Assembly: GCA_046598345.1 (NCBI GenBank)
Contig: JBKJIT010000001.1
Coordinates: forward strand, 44,251 to 108,250
DNA from: Minisyncoccia bacterium
GTDB lineage: Bacteria; Patescibacteriota; Minisyncoccia; Phycocordibacterales; UBA918
Direction: 5' to 3'
DNA length: 64,000 nt
The position numbers and the translations under genes are program-made. Shown here in pieces: positions 2 to 64,000 of the stretch. Under the pieces are notes generated by a model. That model was not told where the DNA came from, searched no databases, and saw nothing but the letters and a program-made list of their open reading frames with translations. The first letter of the stretch is position 1. Each line of letters opens with the position of its first letter.

Positions 2-811
2 TTTGAGACCGTCTTGGGCTTCTTCACGACCGCCGACTCAATTGCAGCAAACAACATCGTCGTTGCGACATACCGCCATATCACAAGCCCAGAAATTCGT
101 ATGTACCTTCTTCGCCAGGCGTACGAGGAAGCAATTCATACGCATGCGTATCAGTACATCGTAGAATCTTTAGGGCTCGATGAGGCAAAGGTCTTCAATA
201 TGTACCGTGAGCGGGACGCTATATACAATAAGGCGAGCTTCATCCTCAATTTTAACGACGGCGTCTTTGATCCTTCGTTTAAGACAGGTACATTCGCAAA
301 CGACCAGAAGTTTCTTGAGAATCTGTGTGTATTCTCGCTCATTCTTGAGGGAATTTTCTTCTACTCTTCCTTTGCCGTTATGTTTGGATTCCAACGTCAG
401 CACAAGCTCACGGGCTCTGCAGAGCAGATTCAATACATCATGCGCGACGAATCCATGCACCTCAATTTCGGTTGCCAACTCATCAATACGATTAGGGAAG
501 AGCAGCCAGAACTCTGGACGAAAGATTTCCAAGATAAGATCACGGGGTACGTAAAAGAAGCTGCACGACTTGAGTACACGTACGCGCAGGAAGTATTTCC
601 ACTCGGTATCTTCGGCATGAACGCGAATGGTTTCAAACAATACATCGAGCACATCGCTGATCGTCGTCTCGAACGGGTAGGTCTCCCTGCCCAATTTGGG
701 GTAAACAACCCATTCCCGTGGATGAGCGAAGCGATTGATTTACCGAAGGAGAAGAACTTTTTTGAAACGAGGGTGACCGAGTACAAAACAGGAGGGGCCT
801 TGAACTGGTAG
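2..811 (+). CDS. nrdB: Ribonucleotide reductase small subunit (R2), C-terminal part; 5' end truncated by window edge
   Basis: Ferritin-like diiron pattern (EAIHTHAY, EGIFFYSSFA, RDESMHLNF) and overall R2-like layout. The frame is open back to the window edge. Confidence 0.8.
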   Translation, partial: FETVLGFFTTADSIAANNIVVATYRHITSPEIRMYLLRQAYEEAIHTHAYQYIVESLGLDEAKVFNMYRERDAIYNKASFILNFNDGVFDPSFKTGTFANDQKFLENLCVFSLILEGIFFYSSFAVMFGFQRQHKLTGSAEQIQYIMRDESMHLNFGCQLINTIREEQPELWTKDFQDKITGYVKEAARLEYTYAQEVFPLGIFGMNANGFKQYIEHIADRRLERVGLPAQFGVNNPFPWMSEAIDLPKEKNFFETRVTEYKTGGALNW

Positions 812-871
812 TCTAGTATCGCACTTGGCCAGCAGTAATTGCCGGCCCTTTTGTAACGAAAAAGGTGCGTT

Positions 872-1831
872 TTGCTATACTTCAAGGATATGAGAAGTGG
901 GTTTTTAATGATGCTCATGGTTTCTGTCATTTTTGGCGGCGGGTATTGGTATTACGTGGCTGAGGCTATATGTGATTTGCCGGTTTCGTATCGAATTGGT
1001 GCGATTGACCCTCGGTTTAATATTGGTGAGGAATATGTCCGCAATCGGGCTTCTGTGGCAGAGTCAATGTGGGAGAATGCAACTGAGCGCAATATTTTTA
1101 CGTACGACCCGAGCGGAGACGTAACCATCAATTTTGTATTTGATGATCGACAAGCAACCGCGAACGAAGAAGAAGAACTTCGTGGTGTACTAGAAACGAA
1201 GGAGGGTGTGAGTGAGACGGTACGTGATCAGTATGATCGACTTCTTGGCGAATACACGACGCTGAAGAAAAGTTACGAAAAGCGAACGAGTACCTATGAA
1301 TCAAATCTTGCTGCATACAATACTGAGGTAGCAAAGTGGAATGAAAAGGGAGGTGCGCCAAAGGATGTGTTTGAGGAACTCAAGCAAACAGGGGAAAGAC
1401 TCGCAAGGGAGCAGCGTACATTAAATGAACTTGCCACGAGTCTGAATAAGCTCGTGGGGCAAATGAATGCGCTTGGAGCAAAAGGCACAACACTTATTAA
1501 TGACTACAATGAAGTGGTGAATGAGTACAATGATAAATTTACAGAAGGCTCTGAGTTTGCCCAAGGGGAATACAAGGCGGACGTTATCACTATCTATGAA
1601 TTTACCTCTGACGAAGAATTAGAGATTGTGCTCGCACATGAATTTGGACACGCGCTTGCGCTGGGTCATGTCGAAGGGGAATCCTCCATCATGTATCACC
1701 TTATGGAGGCACAGAATAAGGAAAGTGGGGTCACCGAAGAGGATATCGCTGAATTTAATCGCCTTTGCGGGAGTGAGGCAACGCCGAGTAAGCGGTTGTA
1801 TAGGTTCCTTTCAAGTATGTGGAAGAGTTAG
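872..1831 (+). CDS. Membrane-anchored metzincin-type Zn metalloprotease (HEFGHALALGH motif) with a coiled-coil central region
   Basis: N-terminal hydrophobic segment, HExxHxxGxxH zinc-binding signature near the C-terminus, and a charged, heptad-like middle region. Confidence 0.55.
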   Translation: MLYFKDMRSGFLMMLMVSVIFGGGYWYYVAEAICDLPVSYRIGAIDPRFNIGEEYVRNRASVAESMWENATERNIFTYDPSGDVTINFVFDDRQATANEEEELRGVLETKEGVSETVRDQYDRLLGEYTTLKKSYEKRTSTYESNLAAYNTEVAKWNEKGGAPKDVFEELKQTGERLAREQRTLNELATSLNKLVGQMNALGAKGTTLINDYNEVVNEYNDKFTEGSEFAQGEYKADVITIYEFTSDEELEIVLAHEFGHALALGHVEGESSIMYHLMEAQNKESGVTEEDIAEFNRLCGSEATPSKRLYRFLSSMWKS

Positions 1832-2983: not shown

Positions 2984-3166
2984 ATGAGCTTCATTGAATA
3001 TCTCAAAGATACCCGGAACGAACTCGGACATGTTTCGTGGCCAACGCGTCGACAGGCAATCGTGTCTACGGTTTTAGTTGTAGTTATTTCCATTCTTGTT
3101 GCTATCTATATTGGAGTGTTCGACTTCATTTTCAGCCGGGCATTGGATTGGTTTATTGAGGGGTAG
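2984..3166 (+). CDS. secE: Preprotein translocase subunit SecE
   Basis: 60-aa protein with a single C-terminal TM helix, located immediately upstream of nusG in the conserved secE-nusG-rplK order. Confidence 0.75.
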   Translation: MSFIEYLKDTRNELGHVSWPTRRQAIVSTVLVVVISILVAIYIGVFDFIFSRALDWFIEG

Positions 3167-3366
3167 AGGATTTTATTTAAAGATTCATGGAAGGTAGTGG
3201 TAAAGAGTTCGTTCGTCGATGAGAGGTTGAGAAACAATCACTTGTTTCTCAAGAGGTTGTCGAGATTTTCTGTAAGAAAATATCATACAACCTGAACAGT
3301 GCCTGTAAGGCATAGGAAGCATCAATCGAGAGTTGAAGATTCATTAAATTCTAACAAAAAGTAAGC

Positions 3367-3912
3367 ATGGCAAAACAACATACAGACGGAGAACGGCATT
3401 GGTACGCAATTCATACCTACTCAGGATATGAGAATGCAGTATCGCGTAATCTAAAGCAGCGTATTGAATCTCTCGGTATGCAAGATCGGATTTTTGATGT
3501 AGTCGTGCCAACGGAAAAAAAGATTCGAGTGAAAGGAGGGAAGCGAGTTACCGAAGAGGAACGCATTTATCCTGGTTACGTTCTCGTTGATATGATCGTA
3601 ACTGATGATTCATGGTACGTCGTGCGTAACACGCCTCGCGTGACCGGCTTCGTGGGAAGTGGTACGCAGCCTGTACCGCTCAAGGATAACGAACTTAAAG
3701 CGCTTATGAATCGTATGGATGATGAAGCCCCAAAGCACCAAGTGGACTTCTCTATTGGCGATATCGTTATGATCGTCGATGGTCCGTTCAAGGAGCTTGA
3801 AGGGAAGGTGGGAGAGATTGATGAAACGCGCGGTAAGGTTAAGGTGCTTGTTTCTATGTTCGGTCGCGAGACTCCCGTAGAACTCGATTTCCTCCAACTA
3901 AAGCGGATCTAA
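3367..3912 (+). CDS. nusG: Transcription termination/antitermination factor NusG
   Basis: NGN domain plus a C-terminal KOW motif (GDIVMIVDGPFKELEGKVGEID); canonical position between secE and rplK. Confidence 0.9.
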   Translation: MAKQHTDGERHWYAIHTYSGYENAVSRNLKQRIESLGMQDRIFDVVVPTEKKIRVKGGKRVTEEERIYPGYVLVDMIVTDDSWYVVRNTPRVTGFVGSGTQPVPLKDNELKALMNRMDDEAPKHQVDFSIGDIVMIVDGPFKELEGKVGEIDETRGKVKVLVSMFGRETPVELDFLQLKRI

Positions 3913-4020
3913 TATCTGTCGGTGTGCGCGTTTGCCAAAGTCCATATTCTCTTGTACGATAGGCGGGCTTCTGAGAGCTGATATGGACTGCTCTCTATAA
4001 AGATTTAATTAACATACACC

Positions 4021-4443
4021 GTGGCTAAAAAGATAGTAAAGAAAATCAAGGTACAGGCGACAGGTGGGAAGGCAACACCAGCTCCACCACTTGGTCCGGT
4101 ACTAGGACAGGCCGGTATTAATATCGGTGAATTCGTAAACCAATTTAACGAACAGACTCGTGATCGAATGGGAGATGTGGTTCCAGTTGAGCTTACCGTC
4201 TATGACGATCGAAGTTTCACCTTCATCACAAAGACCAGTCCAGCTTCACGGCTCATTCTCAAAACAATTGGTAAGGACAAAGGCTCTGGAAAGAATGCGA
4301 CTGCAAAAGTTGGAAGTATTTCTAAGGCACAGATTCGAGAAATTGCGGAAACAAAGATGCAGGACTTAAATGCAAATGACATTGACGCTGCGATGAAAAT
4401 CATCGAAGGTACCTGCCGAAGTATGGGCGTAGAAGTAAAATAA
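4021..4443 (+). CDS. rplK: 50S ribosomal protein L11 (GTG start)
   Basis: Sequence is clearly L11 ([14 protein letters not shown]..., [12 protein letters not shown]). The usual downstream rplA is NOT present. Confidence 0.9.
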
Positions 4444-4460
4444 ATTTACTTCAACAAAGG

Positions 4461-4514
4461 TTGTAAAACATACATTAAAACCGCTCTAAGGCGGTTTTAA
4501 TGTATGTTTTACAA
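4461..4514. terminator. 54-bp near-perfect palindrome / terminator after rplK
   Basis: ttgtaaaacatacattaaaaccgc-tctaag-gcggttttaatgtatgttttacaa. Confidence 0.6.
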
Positions 4515-4575
4515 CCTGAACTGCGGGCGGTATGCCGCAGACGTGAAGTCGTCCCGCCCATCACATTCGCGATTT

Positions 4576-4613
4576 AAAAAGCAAAAATCCGCCCTAGGCG
4601 GATTTTTGCTTTT
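4576..4613. terminator. Second perfect hairpin terminator
   Basis: aaaagcaaaaatccgcc-ctag-ggcggatttttgctttt. Confidence 0.6.
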
Positions 4614-4734
4614 TAACACCTCAGAAACTTGCTCATCCTTGAATTAGTGGTATAACTGGCATGGGTGATGGAAGCTTTTCATGTTCCAGAGGACCCACGT
4701 ACATTTTCAACAATCGTTTTTGTGAGGTAAAAGA

Positions 4735-5307
4735 ATGAATGCATCACATGCGAAGCAGATGAAAATTCTCACAGCAGCTCAGATCGGACTGCACGAATCG
4801 CTGATCGCGCGACAGGAAATGGAGGAAGCACGACTGACTTGCTCCATGCTTATTGTTGCACAAAAATCAGCGGTACTGTTGGTTCGTTCGAAGGTTGGTC
4901 AAAACTGGATCGCGCCCCAGGGCAAGATCAAGACGACCGACAAGACACTGACGCTTGGTGCGCGGCGTGAAGCTTTCGAGGAAGTTGGCTTCGAAGATCG
5001 TCATCGCTCGAGTGAGTATGACATCTTAGTCGGCCAGTACCGCAATCCGATTCCCCGGAATCGGCAAGAGTCTTGCAAAGAAAAACTCATTGTCTGTGTC
5101 GGCATGACGGCAACGCGTGATTCTTTCGTCAGGTTGAATGACGACAACGAGCGGCACGAATGGGTTTCTTCGCCAAGTCAGCTCGCTGAACTCATGTCCA
5201 CAACCCGCAAGATAAAGCGGGAAGGCACGTTTGCAGCGCTGCATCGTCTGTTCGAGCGAAAGATCCTCAATTGGACACCGTTCGCTGGGCAACTGGCAAC
5301 ACAGTAA
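4735..5307 (+). CDS. Nudix-hydrolase-like protein (degenerate Nudix box)
   Basis: GKIKTTDKTLTLGARREAFEEVGF resembles GX5EX7REUXEEXGU. Confidence 0.4.
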   Translation: MNASHAKQMKILTAAQIGLHESLIARQEMEEARLTCSMLIVAQKSAVLLVRSKVGQNWIAPQGKIKTTDKTLTLGARREAFEEVGFEDRHRSSEYDILVGQYRNPIPRNRQESCKEKLIVCVGMTATRDSFVRLNDDNERHEWVSSPSQLAELMSTTRKIKREGTFAALHRLFERKILNWTPFAGQLATQ

Positions 5308-13322: not shown

Positions 13323-13697
13323 ATGAGTAAGAAGAACCCTCGTAACCCCCGGTTGGTTGTTGTTTGCTTTCCCCAACCGGATCCCAAAGCGCGTTGGGAC
13401 GACAAGACGCGGAGAAACCCGCACCCGGAGGTACTCGCTCGCGGCCACTACCAAAGCGCCGAAGAATTGGTGCGGAAGTGCTGGTCTGAAATGAGCAAGT
13501 TGAAGCCCTCCCAGCGCTTCTGTGCGAAGTTCGCGATCGGGTTTGAATCGGAACCCGACATCGCACAGCGCAAGAAGGAAGTCGCTGTTTCCTGGAGCGA
13601 AACCAGGTGGGGCAACGGCACGTTTGAAGCATTCAAGCAGTTCATCATGGATCTGCTTCACAAGTACTTTCCGGCCCCCGTGGTCCAAGCGACGTAA
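13323..13697 (+). CDS. GC-rich orphan hypothetical protein (124 aa) with a perfect AGGAGG SD
   Basis: Local GC is clearly higher than its surroundings. aggaggttagaaATG; terminator hairpin gcccgct-catagtc-agcgggc plus T-run at 13722-13747. No recognisable domain. Confidence 0.4.
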   Translation: MSKKNPRNPRLVVVCFPQPDPKARWDDKTRRNPHPEVLARGHYQSAEELVRKCWSEMSKLKPSQRFCAKFAIGFESEPDIAQRKKEVAVSWSETRWGNGTFEAFKQFIMDLLHKYFPAPVVQAT

Positions 13698-25015: not shown

Positions 25016-25330
25016 ATGGAGCATGGCACAATATTAGGAATCGGCGTCATCCTCCTGCTCGGCTACTATGTATGGAGTGAGAATAAGCGGGACAGGGACG
25101 TGATCTTCAAAGCCCTGAGCGACAAAGAATGGCTGACTGTTGATCAGATTCTTCAGCGCACCGCGGGTAGTGGCAGAAAAATTGAAACAGAAATGATTCA
25201 TTCCGCACTGCGTGCGTTCGAGAAACGGAAGTTAGTTGAACCCGGACGCTCAAAAGACCCCCGTGTTGTGCTACTCACGAATAAAGGAGCCTGGCAGCAT
25301 AACTCAAGGTACTATCGATGTGACACCTGA
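25016..25330 (+). CDS. Small membrane-anchored winged-helix-like protein
   Basis: SD aaggagaag; an N-terminal TM helix, then a helix-rich roughly 80-aa region. Confidence 0.35.
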   Translation: MEHGTILGIGVILLLGYYVWSENKRDRDVIFKALSDKEWLTVDQILQRTAGSGRKIETEMIHSALRAFEKRKLVEPGRSKDPRVVLLTNKGAWQHNSRYYRCDT

Positions 25331-42811: not shown

Positions 42812-42994
42812 ATGGCTACTTCAGAAGTATCGACTGAAGAAGTCGTGCGTAAGGTAAAGGGGGTGCTCGATAGTGGAGAAGCAGATCGACTTATGGAAGA
42901 GTGTAATACAGGAGAAGCTGATCGAAAGATTGAACAACTGCGAAGAGCAGAGCATATTTCTGAAGAAGTTTGGCACAGACGCATAACGATTTGA
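42812..42994 (+). CDS. Small acidic 60-aa protein with its own SD and terminator
   Basis: caaggaggccatATG; hairpin terminator at 43001-43040 (aaaacccacc...ggtgggtttt). Confidence 0.35.
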   Translation: MATSEVSTEEVVRKVKGVLDSGEADRLMEECNTGEADRKIEQLRRAEHISEEVWHRRITI

Positions 42995-44007: not shown

Positions 44008-44718
44008 GGCGCCTACGTGTTTATGCATTTTTCACTAAGAACCACTTAGCGGCACCAGAACCGAAGGGTTCATTGTGCCGCCTCGCGCGGTTTTTTTAGT
44101 CAAAAATGCAAGGGGATACGTGTGATCATTGATAAATCCTAGAGGCAAGATCGAGCGCTTTTGGCGCCCTGGTTTCGTCTATAGGAGTTGCGTAACAATG
44201 GTCACGCAATCACATATCCTCGAGACGAGGTTGATAAGGCCTCGTCTCAGAAAAACAAATCCTGCTCGGGAATCGACGCCCGAGTAGGTGCATCTCTCAC
44301 TCAAATGAGAGGTGTCAGGTGAATGTGTAGCGTTTAGATTTTGTGTCATCGACACGGGGTCTTTTCGTCCGCTACACATTCAACACACACAACGTTTCTT
44401 TCACTTAGTATTTTTGTGGAAGAGACAAACAAGTAAGAATTGTACAGCGGTGTACAGAATCAGGTAGGTGAATGTAAAGCACTCGTAAAGCGGTGTATAG
44501 CATTCCCTACAGGATAAAGGGTGTATGGTGGATGCCTAGGTTTCAAGAAGCGATGAAGGACGTGGTATGGCTGCGTTAAGTTCCGGTTAGATGCCAAATA
44601 ATCTATGACCCGGAAATCTCCGAATGAGGAAACTCACCTGCTTACGGCAGGTACCCATGTATGTGGGAGCGTACCCAGCGAAGTGAAACATCTCAGTAGC
44701 TGGAGGAAAAGAAAGCAA

Positions 44719-44813
44719 TAACGGAACTTTCTTTCTGAACGGATGCTTAGCATCCGAACACGAAAGTGCGTAGGGTGCGAAAGTACCATTACGTTCAGGA
44801 AGAAGGTTCTTGC
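44719..44813 (+). other. About 95-nt insertion in 23S domain I
   Basis: Lies between GGAAAAGAAAGCAA and AATTCCCTGAGTAGCGGCGAGCGAA, which are adjacent in E. coli. Contains the hairpin gaacggatgcttagcatccgaac. Confidence 0.55.
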
Positions 44814-45081
44814 AATTCCCTGAGTAGCGGCGAGCGAAACGGGATGAGCCCAAACCATTCGTGTTTACATGGATGGGGTTGTAGGGCAGTAGCGTCATTT
44901 AGTTGAGAAGAGTAAAAAATTGTCGGGATAACAAAACGCGTTGGGAAGCGCGACCCTAGTAGGTAATAGTCCTGTATGTGAAATTACGACAACTCTTTTG
45001 TTACTGTTCCTGAGTAGTTCGGGACATGAATAGCCCGAATGAATCTGGGAGTACTAACTCCTAAGGCTAAATATTCTTGAA

Positions 45082-45127
<46 letters not shown>

Positions 45128-45692
45128 GGAGAGGGGAGTGAAATAGATCTGAAACCATACACTTACAAGGAGTCGCGGCCCTGCGGGGTTGCGGCGTGCC
45201 TATTGAAGAATGAGCCGGCGAGTGTACCTTTGTCCTTTGTCTAAGTGGTAATCCCACGGAGGCACAGTGAAAGCGAGCGTGAATAGCGCGAATATAGGGC
45301 AGGGGTACGACCCGAAGCGGGATGAGCTTGCCATGTGCAGGGTGAAGCGACGGTAAAACGTCGTGGAGGCCCGAACCGGTTGGCCGTTCAAAACCATCGG
45401 ATGACATGTGGTAGGGAGTGAAAAGCTAATCGAATTCCGTAATAGCTGGTTCTCTCCGAAACAGCTTTAGGGTTGGCGTCGCGTGTTCCTCCTGGGGGTA
45501 GAGCACTGGAAGGTCTAAATAGGGCGAAAGCTCGTTAGACCTATCAAACTCCGAATACCAGGTAGTTATAGCGCGGCAGTTAGACTATGGGGGAGAAGCT
45601 CCATTGGTCGAAAGGGAAACAGCCCAGATCGCCAGTTAAGGTCCCTAAATATATGCTCAGTGCAACTTGAGGAGGTGAGGATTCACGAACAA

Positions 45693-45723
<31 letters not shown>

Positions 45724-46576
45724 TAAAGAAAGCGTAACAGCTCACTGGTCGAGAGTCCTTGCGCCGAAGATGATCGGGGCTCAAGCATATTACCGAAACT
45801 GCGGATTTCATATTTTCTTCGGAAAGTATGGAGTGGTAGGAGAGCGTTCTGTTCTGCGATGAAGCCAAGGGGGGACCCGCGGTGGAGCGTACAGAAGTGA
45901 GAATGCCGGCACAAGTAACCGCAACACGGGTGAGAACCCCGTGCGCCGAAATACCAAGGTTTCCTTCGCTATGTTGTTCAGCGAAGGGTTAGTCGGTCCT
46001 AAGCCGATCCCGATCGGGGGAGGCGATGGATAGCAGGTTAATATTCCTGCACACTGTTTTGTTGCGATGGAGGGACGGAGTGTTGTACTCAAAGCATCTT
46101 ATTGGATTGGTGCTGGAGTTATGAGGACGTGAAGTAGGCAAATCCGCTTCGCTCACTTTAATGTGAAGTCCAAGTAAGGTCTGAAAGGGATCCTTCGGGT
46201 GAACTGATTTGGGGAGCACGCTTCCGAGAAAAACTTCTAAGGTTAAACAAAATGGTTCCGTACCGCAATCCGACACAGGTGGTAAGGTCGAGTAGACCAA
46301 GGCGAACGAGTGAGATGCTCTTAAGGAACTCGGCAAAAAAGCGGCCGTAACTTCGGGATAAGGCCTGCCCCTAGCAATAGGGGCCGCAGCGAAAGATTTC
46401 CTGGCGACTGTTTAACAAAAACACAGCTCCCTGCGAACACGTAAGTGGATGTATAGGGGGTGACGCCTGACCAATGCCGGAAGGTCAAACATGGAGGGTG
46501 AAGTGTATTTATATGCTTTGCTGGGCTATGTAAGCCCCGGTCAATGTCAGCGATAACTATAATCGTTCTAAGGTAG

Positions 46577-46770
46577 AGCAATTTTCTTCGGAAAATTGCT
46601 CTAGGACTGGAACGATTATAGGTTAAACATACAAGTGCCAAATGCTACCTTGTATGCAGAAATGCATGCATAGTCCAAATGCAACCAATAAGAGACCAAA
46701 TGTTGCACATCCTCGTCACGTAACAGTGAACGGATGAAGATAGAGTCCTTCTGCAATAAATAGGAAGAAG
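46577..46770 (+). other. About 190-nt insertion in 23S domain IV at the L1931-equivalent site (between CUAAGGU(AG) and AGCGCAAUUCCUUGUCGGGUAAGUUCCGAC)
   Basis: The flanks match the conserved H69-H71 region. The insert starts with an 11-bp stem and UUCG loop (gagcaattttc-ttcg-gaaaattgctc) and ends ...gaagaag. Confidence 0.6.
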
Positions 46771-47409
46771 AGCGCAATTCCTTGTCGGGTAAGTTCCGAC
46801 GTGCACGAATGGCGTAACGACTGGGAAACTGTCTCAAGAGCATGCTCGGTGAAAATACAATGGGGGTGAAGATGCCCCCTACCTGCAGTTAGACGAAAAG
46901 ACCCTAGGAGCTTTACTGTAGCTTCGTATTGGGGCTGTTTGATTAATGCGTAGCATAGGTGGGAGACTTTGAAGCGGGCTTTCGGGTTCCGTGGAGTCGA
47001 AATATGAAATACCACTCTTTAATTGGGCAGTTCCTAACCTCGTAGGCAAAACCTACGAGAGACAGTGCGTGGCAGGCAGTTTTAGTGGGGCGCTACCCTC
47101 CCAAAAAGTAACGGAGGGGTCTCAAGGTTGGTTAGGCGCGAATGGAAACCGTGCCGATAGTGTAATGGCATAAACCAGCTTGACTGTAAGACGTAGGTGT
47201 CAAACAGATGCGAAAGCAGAGCATAGTGAACCGATGGCCCGCGTTAGATGCGGCCGGAGATTACCCGATAAAAGTTACCCTAGGGATAACAGGCTAGTCG
47301 TGCCCAAGCGTCCATAGCGACGGCACGGTTCGGCACCTCGATGTCGGTTCAACTTATCCTGGGGCTGGAGCAGGTCCCAAGGGTTTGGCTGTTCGCCAAT
47401 TAAAAAGTT

Positions 47410-47447
<38 letters not shown>

Positions 47448-48015
47448 CTCTATCTACTGCAGGCGTCGATTCTTGATGAGATTTGTCCCTAGTACGAGAG
47501 GACCGGGATGAACGAACCTCTGGTCTATCGGCTGTCACGCCAGTGGCACTGCCGAGTAGCTATGTTCGGAATGAATAACCGCTGAAAGCATCTAAGCGGG
47601 AAGTCAACTCAAAGATGATGAATCATTAAGTCCCCTGAGAGATGATCAGGTTGATAGGCACTAGGTGTACGTGCAGTAATGCATGCAGCCGAGGTGTACT
47701 AATTGGACGTATTCCTGTAGGGAATGCTGTACATGGCCCACGATGTTGAAATTTGCACATTTCTGCGTTATGCGTCGGGAAACGTTGTTCACTGGACTAA
47801 AATGTCCCGTTCACAACATTTCCCTCGCATGCCTTGAACTGTATTAAATTTTAACATCGTGAAAATAAGCTGTGTACATTTCTACGGATTCTGTACACAA
47901 AAACAATTTTTACAAAGTGTTGTGTGAGTCGATCAAGTCCACGAGGATATGTGATTCTGAAAGCAATGTTTCGGAACTAAATATTGAATATGGTAACAAG
48001 GTTTACCTACCTAAT

Positions 48016-48188
48016 CGGGATGTAGCTTAGTTGGAGAGGTTTTGCGTGTAGCATACAACCACTGCACCATCTGCAGCCGCGATATGGTGAACTGCCGACG
48101 ACAAGTTGGAGGAAGGAGTGGAAACGTACAAAGCCGAGAGTACTAGGACAGTTTCCTAGGAGCGTTGGTTCGAATCCGACCATCCCGA
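48016..48188 (+). tRNA. tRNA-like gene with about 97 nt of additional internal sequence (intron- or insertion-containing tRNA, or tRNA-like processing element)
   Basis: 7-bp acceptor stem CGGGATG / CATCCCG, discriminator A, canonical T-arm GTTGG-TTCGAAT-CCGAC, D-arm-like TAGCTTAGTTGGAGAGG. A candidate anticodon hairpin CTAGG-ACAGTTT-CCTAG lies just before the T-arm. Overall length is 173 nt. Confidence 0.5.
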
Positions 48189-48264: not shown

Positions 48265-48377
<113 letters not shown>

Positions 48378-52699: not shown

Positions 52700-53167
52700 T
52701 TAGTATTCGTTTTCTGCAGCTCTATCAGCAGCAATACTATCTTCGCGTTTTTCTGCTTTAGTGCGATCGTCATACCAAAAGTCGACGCCGCCAGTGTACT
52801 CCTGCTCTAAATTTCGCAGTGTCCTGTAGTACGTCTCGCGAAATGCCGGGTGGCACTTTTCGAGCACATCATCCGGCACATCGGGATCATGACGAGCGAT
52901 ATGGCGCGCCCGTTCACGCTGGGCTATTGCTTCTTCGGCCGCAGTCATGCGGGCCGGCGCTGTTGCCAAGGGAGTATCTTTCACTCGCCCTAGCAGCTCG
53001 TTGCGACCGCGGTAGTACCCGTCGCGGAATGAAATCGAACGTGTGTCGATTCCGCGGAGCGGTTTGCGGCTTTGCTTGCCTACTTCATAGCCATTCCTCC
53101 ATTCTGCCTGGGACACGCGGATTGTCTCCGCGACGCGGCGTTGGTTAAAAGAACCACTCATAGACAC
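52700..53167 (-). CDS. GC-rich orphan hypothetical protein (155 aa) with a perfect AGGAGG SD
   Basis: Markedly higher GC than its neighbours; aacaggaggtgtctATG on the minus strand. Arg/Glu-rich, no recognisable domain. Confidence 0.4.
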   Translation of the reverse strand: MSMSGSFNQRRVAETIRVSQAEWRNGYEVGKQSRKPLRGIDTRSISFRDGYYRGRNELLGRVKDTPLATAPARMTAAEEAIAQRERARHIARHDPDVPDDVLEKCHPAFRETYYRTLRNLEQEYTGGVDFWYDDRTKAEKREDSIAADRAAENEY

Positions 53168-61857: not shown

Positions 61858-61885
61858 TTGACCTTTCTTTTTAGACCTGTATAAT
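61858..61885 (+). promoter_or_regulatory. Sigma70 promoter TTGACC-N16-TATAAT upstream of 16S rRNA
   Basis: ttgacc tttctttttagacctg tataat, about 380 nt before the 16S 5' end; same architecture as the 23S promoter. Confidence 0.55.
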
Positions 61886-62267
61886 AGCCCCACTGTCCTG
61901 ATCTGGGACATTTTTATTGCCCCGGATTTTGGAGGATAGATGTCATTTGATAACGTTGTATGAAGGTCATACAATTGCATATCGTTCGATCAGTCGTACC
62001 TTTACGATTGGTTGAACAAAACGTATATGTTGCATAAGCAATGTCATTTTGACATTCATATGAAACGGTACGCATCACAAGAATTTGTCGAAAGACAAGT
62101 TCGAAATAAGGCAGAAGTTGATTACAAATATTTTGTATTTTCTTTTGTCTTATCCTTAGGAAATCGTTAAATAGTGATTTGAGAAAAAGTACACTCATCA
62201 CAATACATTTAACAAACAAGATGCACTCAGCCCTTAAAAGCTGAAGCAACTTGTCTTAACTTAGAGT

Positions 62268-63706
<1,439 letters not shown>

Positions 63707-64000
63707 TAATTCCAATTGGATACGTCGTTGCAATCTGGTAACAGAGAGCGAATAACGGCTAATTGGTCGACATTATGTGCCTCAATTGAGCACATAATAT
63801 GGGATGATACTCAACCTCAAAGATAGTATCTGTACTCTACGGAAAGACGTAGCCAAAGGATAAGACAAAAGAGAACACAAACGTTCTGTCGGTGATGATA
63901 TACAGTACAGAAAACAAAAGACCCGATCGCGAAGCGATCGGGTCTTTTGCGTACCTCTTTACCTTGGCCTCATCTGCATGTAGTCAGGCACAATGGGATT

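Follow-up and report, generated by a model that had tools for sequence, protein, structure and literature searches.

Substitution of the anti-Shine-Dalgarno core in a solitary 16S rRNA gene of the Parcubacteria lineage

The DNA considered here is a stretch of 64,000 nucleotides (the window) from contig JBKJIT010000001.1 of a Minisyncoccia bacterium, and its subject is the 16S ribosomal RNA (rRNA) gene at the window's end and the unusual sequence of its 3' tail. The rRNA genes all lie on the same strand in the order 23S-5S, ~14 kb of protein-coding genes, and 16S. A covariance-model scan matches the 16S gene to Rfam family RF00177 over model positions 1-1533 of 1533 (1363.9 bits), untruncated and with both ends included. 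The gene is 1461 nucleotides (nt) long compared with 1533 model positions, contains no large insert, and reaches the end of the model at 63716. When 63500-64000 is scanned again, the last 13 nt of the gene, GAUUAAUUCCAAU, align with the model consensus GAUcACCUCCUUu column for column, with no gaps and at the top posterior probability. Because these nucleotides run ungapped to model position 1533, the 16S gene is complete and uninterrupted and would end normally near 63716. At the positions equivalent to the core of the anti-Shine-Dalgarno (anti-SD) sequence, this tail carries AUUCC instead of CCUCC.

The tail has five mismatches to the model consensus and does not match the conserved bacterial tail GAUCACCUCCUUA with its CCUCC core; no CCTCC is present in 63690-64000. 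Since the alignment is gap-free, CCUCC has been changed to AUUCC by substitutions and not by an insertion. The initial annotation of this locus described an intact helix 45 with a 10-bp stem and a GGAA loop, followed by a 3' end that departs from the universal sequence, no CCUCC before the window end, and ACCTCTTTACC at about 63953 as the closest match. Helix 45 is found at the same coordinates, and it is paired at 99.9% across 67 distinct relatives, with compensatory changes. The lack of CCUCC is likewise borne out, and the closest match lies at 63953-63963. It is also true that the tail reads GATTAATTCCAATTGG and not GATCACCTCCTTA, but this is no departure from 16S rRNA, as the 13-nt tail aligns ungapped to the model end. 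One of the two explanations originally offered, a 16S rRNA without a canonical anti-SD coupled to weak SD dependence, agrees with the replacement of CCUCC by AUUCC and with the lack of SD-like signals of either kind before genes. We consider it very probable that this is a complete, stand-alone 16S gene of the Paceibacteria/Parcubacteria within the Candidate Phyla Radiation (CPR), that its anti-SD core was lost by substitution with nothing interrupted, and that translation initiation in this organism is SD-free.

The gene also has an unusual 530 loop (62700-62735). It reads GUGCCAGCAGGAGCGGUAAUAC in the RF00177 alignment, and its pseudoknot is UCC/GGA instead of GGC/GCC, a change on both sides that reads as a compensated signature. 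The altered loop abolishes the universal 515F/519R primer site, and the signature GTGCCAGCAGGAGCGGTAATAC is common to >120 species genomes, mostly Patescibacteria/Paceibacterota metagenome-assembled genomes (MAGs). Relatives were found by scanning one genome per species for this 530-loop signature, which yielded at least 120 loci, 73 of them including helix 45 and the tail. Among the matches listed, the labels are mostly Paceibacterota, Parcubacteria-lineage candidate phylum or generic Patescibacteria, along with several Saccharibacteria, and the nearest 16S identities are 90.4% (L099), 89.8% (L045) and 92.6% over a partial gene (L027), in a range of 87-92.6%. The source organism is affiliated with the Parcubacteria/Paceibacteria. 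CCUCC occurs in the tail of one of the 73 listed relatives (L026) and UCUCC in two (L044 and L095); the rest have AUUCC, AUUCA, ACUCA, UAUCC and similar sequences. The exact window tail is also present in L022, L045, L064, L099 and L117 among the matches listed.

Loss of the anti-SD is a trait already published for a subgroup of Parcubacteria. Tsurumaki, Saito, Tomita and Kanai (RNA 2022; PMC9297842) detected the anti-SD motif CCTCCT in 48% of Parcubacteria. The lineages that lack it overlap the group lacking uL1, SD helices are thought not to form in them, and bS21 is often absent in Parcubacteria (PMC9297842). The window resembles these uL1- and anti-SD-lacking Parcubacteria in having a CPR-type 16S rRNA with no CCUCC(U) at its 3' end, in the absence of rplA after rplK, and in that SD helices are inferred not to form. 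The relevant region (2984-5307) contains secE (2984-3166), nusG (3367-3912) and rplK (4021-4443), then two strong hairpins (~4462-4518 and ~4582-4612) and, in place of rplA-rplJ-rplL at this locus, a NUDIX gene. This secE-nusG-rplK order without rplA is consistent with the uL1-lacking group. The published study differs in giving the detection rate of the motif only: it does not say which sequences replace the motif, how the spacer is built or how initiation proceeds, and the tail-trailer hairpin is not described in it. The window organism has at most ~92.6% 16S identity to any species representative retrieved.

The ~290 nt that follow the 16S gene appear to be the 3' part of the pre-16S transcript, composed of a 3' external spacer, a processing stem and a terminator (Table 1), and therefore no distal exon would be needed. 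With trailers of relatives whose 16S genes are 88-90% identical, the spacer shares 73-81% identity, and RNAalifold identifies 11 pairs with compensatory changes in it. In the alignment of relatives, the tail is invariant through GGA at 63720, after which conservation drops. The segment that runs from the box CTAATTGGTCGA into the adjacent hairpin (63759-63798) is recognisable in the more distant L055, L089, L112 and L079. A pairing of the tail CCAAUUGG with the trailer box CUAAUUGG, which is possible in the window, is not kept in L061 and was dropped.

A leader-trailer helix is the classical bracket of pre-16S rRNA. Cofolding of the leader and trailer predicts such a helix between 62132-62157 and 63856-63881 (25 bp), plus 7 bp between 62110-62116 and 63884-63890. 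A duplex fold of the whole leader against the whole trailer over-pairs everything, and it is the core stem alone that is meaningful. The leader segment of the stem is 91-93% conserved in L045, L063 and L064, and the trailer strand AAGGATAAGACAAAAGAG is near-invariant in seven relatives. There is one compensatory change, from T-A to C-G in L061; the helix is otherwise mostly invariant and its covariation is thin. This is the kind of helix that RNase III cuts, and cleavage by such an enzyme would be expected here. As in the leader-trailer helix of other bacterial pre-16S rRNAs (e.g. PMC10250234), a long helix flanks the 16S sequence, ~100 nt before the mature 5' end and ~140 nt past the mature 3' end, whereas the unit in the window consists of 16S alone and a terminator and does not continue into tRNA, 23S and 5S. 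A 111-amino-acid (aa) open reading frame (ORF) with a TTG start and no Pfam match overlaps the 16S leader and processing-stem strand on the minus strand (61914-62249) and is probably spurious.

The strong hairpin that had been annotated in the tail at 63918-63950 exists, although its coordinates are 1-2 nt off. It occupies 63916-63948 by hand count (15 bp, with a GAA loop at 63931-63933) or 63914-63950 by the terminator scan. This putative terminator, which would close the 16S unit, has the better U-run on the minus strand, with UUUU-G on the plus strand, and could in addition terminate a convergent gene that lies past the window end. Unrelated terminator-like hairpins are found at the same place, right after the processing stem, in L099, L117 and L060, where sequence similarity ends past the stem. 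Rfam matches to the hairpin (RefA9, ohsC, AgrB and rimP leader; E 0.16-0.37, below the gathering score) were rejected as chance matches to a generic hairpin. A promoter consensus scan gives 4 sites compared with 2.4 expected.

Given that the 23S and 5S genes lie ~14 kb upstream, the 16S gene is a stand-alone transcription unit and the rRNA genes are unlinked, an arrangement that fits the terminator. No 23S gene occurs within 2.6-6.4 kb downstream of 16S in the five relatives whose loci extend that far. The 23S gene of the window spans 3220 nt compared with 2925 model positions and probably carries ~300 nt of insertion(s). Between 23S and 5S lies a tRNA-like gene (48016-48188, plus strand) with a 103-nt D-loop insertion, which scores 34.7 bits with the Rfam tRNA model and is missed by ARAGORN. 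Its acceptor and T arms are good, and its anticodon loop, ACAGUUU, is without U33. Possible identities are a tRNA with an intron and a processing signal that resembles a tRNA.

Table 1. Predicted features of the 16S transcription unit and the other rRNA genes of the window
Feature	Position	Strand	Basis
23S rRNA	44505-47724	+	whole-window Rfam scan
5S rRNA	48267-48374	+	whole-window Rfam scan
Second candidate 16S promoter	61858-61885	+	consensus scan, low confidence
Candidate 16S promoter, TTGATA-17-TACAAT	61947-61975	+	consensus scan, low confidence
5' leader strand of leader-trailer (RNase III-type) processing stem	62110-62157	+	cofolding
16S rRNA gene, complete, no insertion	62256-63716	+	Rfam RF00177
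Helix 45: 10-bp stem, 63680-63689 with 63694-63703, two G-U; GGAA tetraloop 63690-63693	63680-63703	+	
16S 3' tail GAUUAAUUCCAAU; anti-SD-equivalent positions 63709-63713 are AUUCC, not CCUCC	63704-63716	+	model alignment
Tail-trailer hairpin: UCC 63711-63713, loop AAUU, GGA 63718-63720	63711-63720	+	covariation among relatives
Structured 3' external transcribed spacer	63717-63855	+	conservation, RNAalifold
Spacer stem, covarying	63724-63727 with 63756-63759	+	alignment of relatives, RNAalifold
Conserved box CTAATTGGTCGA	63759-63770	+	near-invariant, 7/8 sequences
Covarying hairpin, CAAUUG loop, up to three compensatory changes per pair	63772-63798	+	RNAalifold
3' trailer strand of processing stem, core AAGGATAAGACAAAAGAG	63856-63890	+	cofolding, conservation
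Intrinsic-terminator hairpin closing the 16S unit	63914-63950	.	terminator scan: 17 pairs, 9 GC

The former anti-SD positions can pair with the first bases of the trailer. In the window three base pairs of this hairpin are left (-1.9 kcal/mol). Across the relatives, tail nt 7-10 (the CUCC positions) are followed by a 3-5-nt loop and then by their own complement, and the variants include UUCC-AAUU-GGAA, UUCA-AUU-UGAA, CUCA-AAU-UGAG and UCC-AAUC-GGA. The canonical and near-canonical tails form CUCCUU-UCU-AAGGAG (L026, CCUCC) and CUCCUU-UCU-AGGGAG (L095, UCUCC). When helix 45 and the tail were realigned with a covariance model, the 3-nt versus 4-nt loop was not opened and half of the sequences were mis-registered (tail helix 72.6% paired); the significant whole-structure covariation statistics of this realignment are driven by helix 45. 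For this reason we relied on a register-free contingency test. All 29 sequences with C at tail nt 10 have GGA downstream; of the 43 with A there, 35 have TGA downstream and 1 has GGA. The association is highly significant (Fisher's exact test, 1e-17) and involves no fewer than 10 changes of state on a neighbour-joining tree.

This hairpin is most economically read as an element of the pre-rRNA that marks the 3' end, or masks it, up to maturation, and that compensation has preserved after the anti-SD was lost. The pairing between tail and trailer outlasts the anti-SD function, which points to a further role of these bases in pre-16S processing. Genetic experiments in Flavobacterium, where ablating the anti-SD impaired pre-16S maturation, agree with such a role (PMC13000453).

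A different and unlikely reading of the same covariation is that the tail of anti-SD-less Paceibacteria is not trimmed at the canonical site. The mini-helix UCC-AAUU-GGA would then be retained in the mature 16S rRNA, where, as an intrinsic mimic of the SD helix, it would fill the platform cleft of the SD-anti-SD duplex. The 3' arm does covary with the tail across the clade, and invariance among close relatives does reach GGA at 63720 before falling. However, the canonical relatives have the same hairpin, CUCCUU-UCU-AAGGAG, and the equivalent downstream AAGGA of Firmicutes is removed on maturation. The helix is also very weak alone, with an energy of -1.9 kcal/mol here and 0 for the UUCA type. 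A further point in its favor concerns helix 26, a contact of the SD helix, whose conservation in Parcubacteria is unexpected and has no known reason (Tsurumaki et al., PMC9297842). If the mini-hairpin is retained, it would explain both the covariation of the tail with the first trailer bases and the conservation of helix 26 in a clade unable to form SD helices. Together with the loss of Era and bS21, this would describe a 30S platform re-engineered for leaderless, SD-free initiation.

The altered tail does not appear to be matched by a signal in the mRNAs. We counted upstream motifs at positions -22 to -3 of 42 ATG-first ORFs of the window. GGAGG is present before none of them (0.7 expected), and AGGAG (0.9 expected) and GGAAT, the complement of the new tail (0.9 expected), are each present before one. 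Duplex energies to the canonical or the new tail are no better than those of shuffles for these ORFs. The hybridisation-energy profile shows no dip before starts for either tail, and the pairing potential is weakest at -15 to -3. Among 162 pooled genes of the relatives, there is no enrichment of GGAGG, nor of GGAAT or TGAAT matched to the type of tail that each relative has. The canonical-type contrast set (L026, L044 and L095) offers 8 usable genes, which are too few to show SD usage tracking the anti-SD.

These counts confirm that AGGAGG-like motifs are missing before most genes, as had been noted from the sequence for most conserved genes. It had also been noted that several small or orphan ORFs have a perfect SD motif. 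A few do have SD-like motifs at the right spacing, with AGGAG or GGAGG well placed before the ORFs at 13323-13697 (plus strand), 25016-25330 (plus), 52700-53161 (minus) and 42812-42994 (plus), but they cannot be distinguished from chance because there are 534 such 5-mer sites on the two strands. None of these four ORFs has a Pfam match, and the ribosome of this genome would be unable to pair with their motifs. They could be chance occurrences or recently acquired genes.

It could be imagined that AUUCC is itself a co-evolved, non-canonical anti-SD and that the mRNAs carry a matching GGAAU or UUGGAAUUAAUC-type ribosome-binding site. The tail is invariant among relatives with ~88-90% 16S identity, and one gene (56835) has GGAATTTAAT upstream. 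This proposal is nevertheless hardly credible against the motif and energy results given above. Besides the single GGAAT, neither TGGAA nor AATTA occurs before the 42 window genes, and the relatives have GGAAT before 0 of 72 genes (TCC-type tails) and TGAAT before 0 of 90 (TCA-type tails).

The words that are enriched upstream of the 42 window ORFs are TAATA and ATAAT. In 7 of these genes a TANNNT hexamer has its end exactly 6 nt ahead of the ATG, compared with 0.3% of control ATGs; the starts that have it include 6299, 8647, 40076, 48597 and 57662. Of 208 pooled genes from the anti-SD-less loci, 29 have a -10 box (five or more of the six TATAAT positions matched) whose end lies 6-7 nt before the ATG, with 1.7 expected (p ~ 3e-26). 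A -10 box at this distance from the ATG is a signature of leaderless mRNAs. Leaderless transcription, with the box 6-7 nt before the AUG, appears to apply to a sizeable share of the genes. The other genes have A/U-rich, G-poor upstream regions without complementarity to the rRNA tail. The ribosomes of this lineage probably do not dock mRNAs by SD pairing, and leaderless initiation together with A/U-rich unstructured leaders could replace this docking. Among the papers covered by the literature search, none ties leaderless translation to Parcubacteria or Patescibacteria.

The other explanation offered at the outset, a 3'-terminal intron or intervening sequence just after helix 45 with a CCUCC-bearing terminal exon beyond 64000, is very improbable. 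It was motivated by the lack of CCTCC up to the window end and by the statement that CPR genomes are known for rRNA introns. That statement is correct in general, and introns are common in the 16S genes of CPR bacteria (Brown et al. 2015, as cited in PMC9297842). Three relatives of the same clade (L022, L089 and L041) have a ~0.85-kb insertion ~130 nt before the 16S 3' end, but the 16S gene of the window has none: it fills model positions 1-1533 without insertion. Because the tail aligns to the last 13 positions of the model base for base, nothing is left for a distal exon to supply. A scan of 63500-64000 gives no match to any group I or II intron family even at E<=1, and 63700-64000 contains no ORF of at least 60 aa. 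The supposed intron instead pairs with the 5' leader as the processing stem and is followed by the terminator. Tails that are just as non-canonical occupy this position in >65 related genomes and are followed there by unrelated spacers, and the relatives show the same architecture with complete 16S genes. The insertion of these three relatives lies right after CCGCCCGUCA (~E. coli position 1400; ~522-1446 on the minus strand in L022). In L022 it contains an ORF of 176 aa (658-1188, minus strand) with a LAGLIDADG-like LTDGEGCF motif, and it looks like a homing-endonuclease intron.

We give scarcely any credence to a decaying, non-functional 16S copy (a pseudogene) or a contig-end assembly artefact, which could be suspected from the gene's place at the window end and from a Logan contig with the neighbouring genes (7 kb) that stops at ~62087, ~170 nt before 16S, since the gene scores 1364 bits with its helices intact, has compensatory changes in the 530-loop pseudoknot and helix 45, and recurs with the same tail and trailer in independent MAGs of different studies. 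Exact-match metagenome scans with the window end (63960-63999) and with the trailer segment 63729-63760 gave no matches. Genes of this organism are present in SRR31159418.

Several points weigh against the reading that we prefer, a complete 16S gene with a substituted anti-SD core and SD-free initiation. Where the mature rRNA ends at its 3' side, where cleavage occurs and where transcription starts are predicted from sequence. The plus-strand U-run of the terminator is short (UUUU, partly within the stem). That 72 of 73 tails are without CCUCC holds for a set selected by its 530 loop and not for all Parcubacteria, and the 64 kb of genome visible here do not show a genome-wide absence of rplA, era or rpsU. 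Genes were assumed to begin at the first ATG of the longest ORFs, an assumption that fails for some of them; such errors, however, would be expected to weaken the -10 peak and not to produce it.

In Actinobacteria and Deinococcus-Thermus a canonical anti-SD is retained and leadered genes rely on SD sites, whereas no SD system is detectable here. What the window shares with these leaderless-rich bacteria is that a substantial share of the genes have a -10 box ~6-7 nt before the start (Zheng et al. 2011, PMC3160421; GeneMarkS-2 group C, PMC6028130). The SD-blind ribosomes of Bacteroidia (Flavobacterium johnsoniae; Naeem et al., NAR 2026; PMC13000453) provide a second comparison, because initiation there is SD-independent, as is proposed here, and upstream regions are A-rich and G-poor in both. 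In Bacteroidia, however, CCUCC is kept and hidden under bS21, bS18 and bS6, while in the window the sequence itself is gone. Bacteroidia also still need CCUCC, whose residual roles in Flavobacterium are autoregulation of rpsU (bS21) and pre-16S processing (PMC13000453). Era binds GAUCACCUCC, and most CPR bacteria have lost Era (PMC10582724). Loss of Era and absence of bS21 would be plausible reasons why the anti-SD sequence could decay.

The main value of this analysis is one of clarification: the odd 3' end of this 16S gene is neither an intron nor an assembly fault, but a published Parcubacteria trait. To that trait the window adds what replaces the anti-SD (AUUCC), evidence that no compensating mRNA motif has evolved, and a clade-wide signature of promoters at start codons, by which leaderless mRNAs are indicated as the probable substitute for SD docking. 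In this clade, the SD-based start prediction and the 16S 3'-end trimming rules of annotation pipelines fail. The anti-SD is among the most conserved of bacterial sequences, and each true loss of it is a natural experiment in SD-free initiation.

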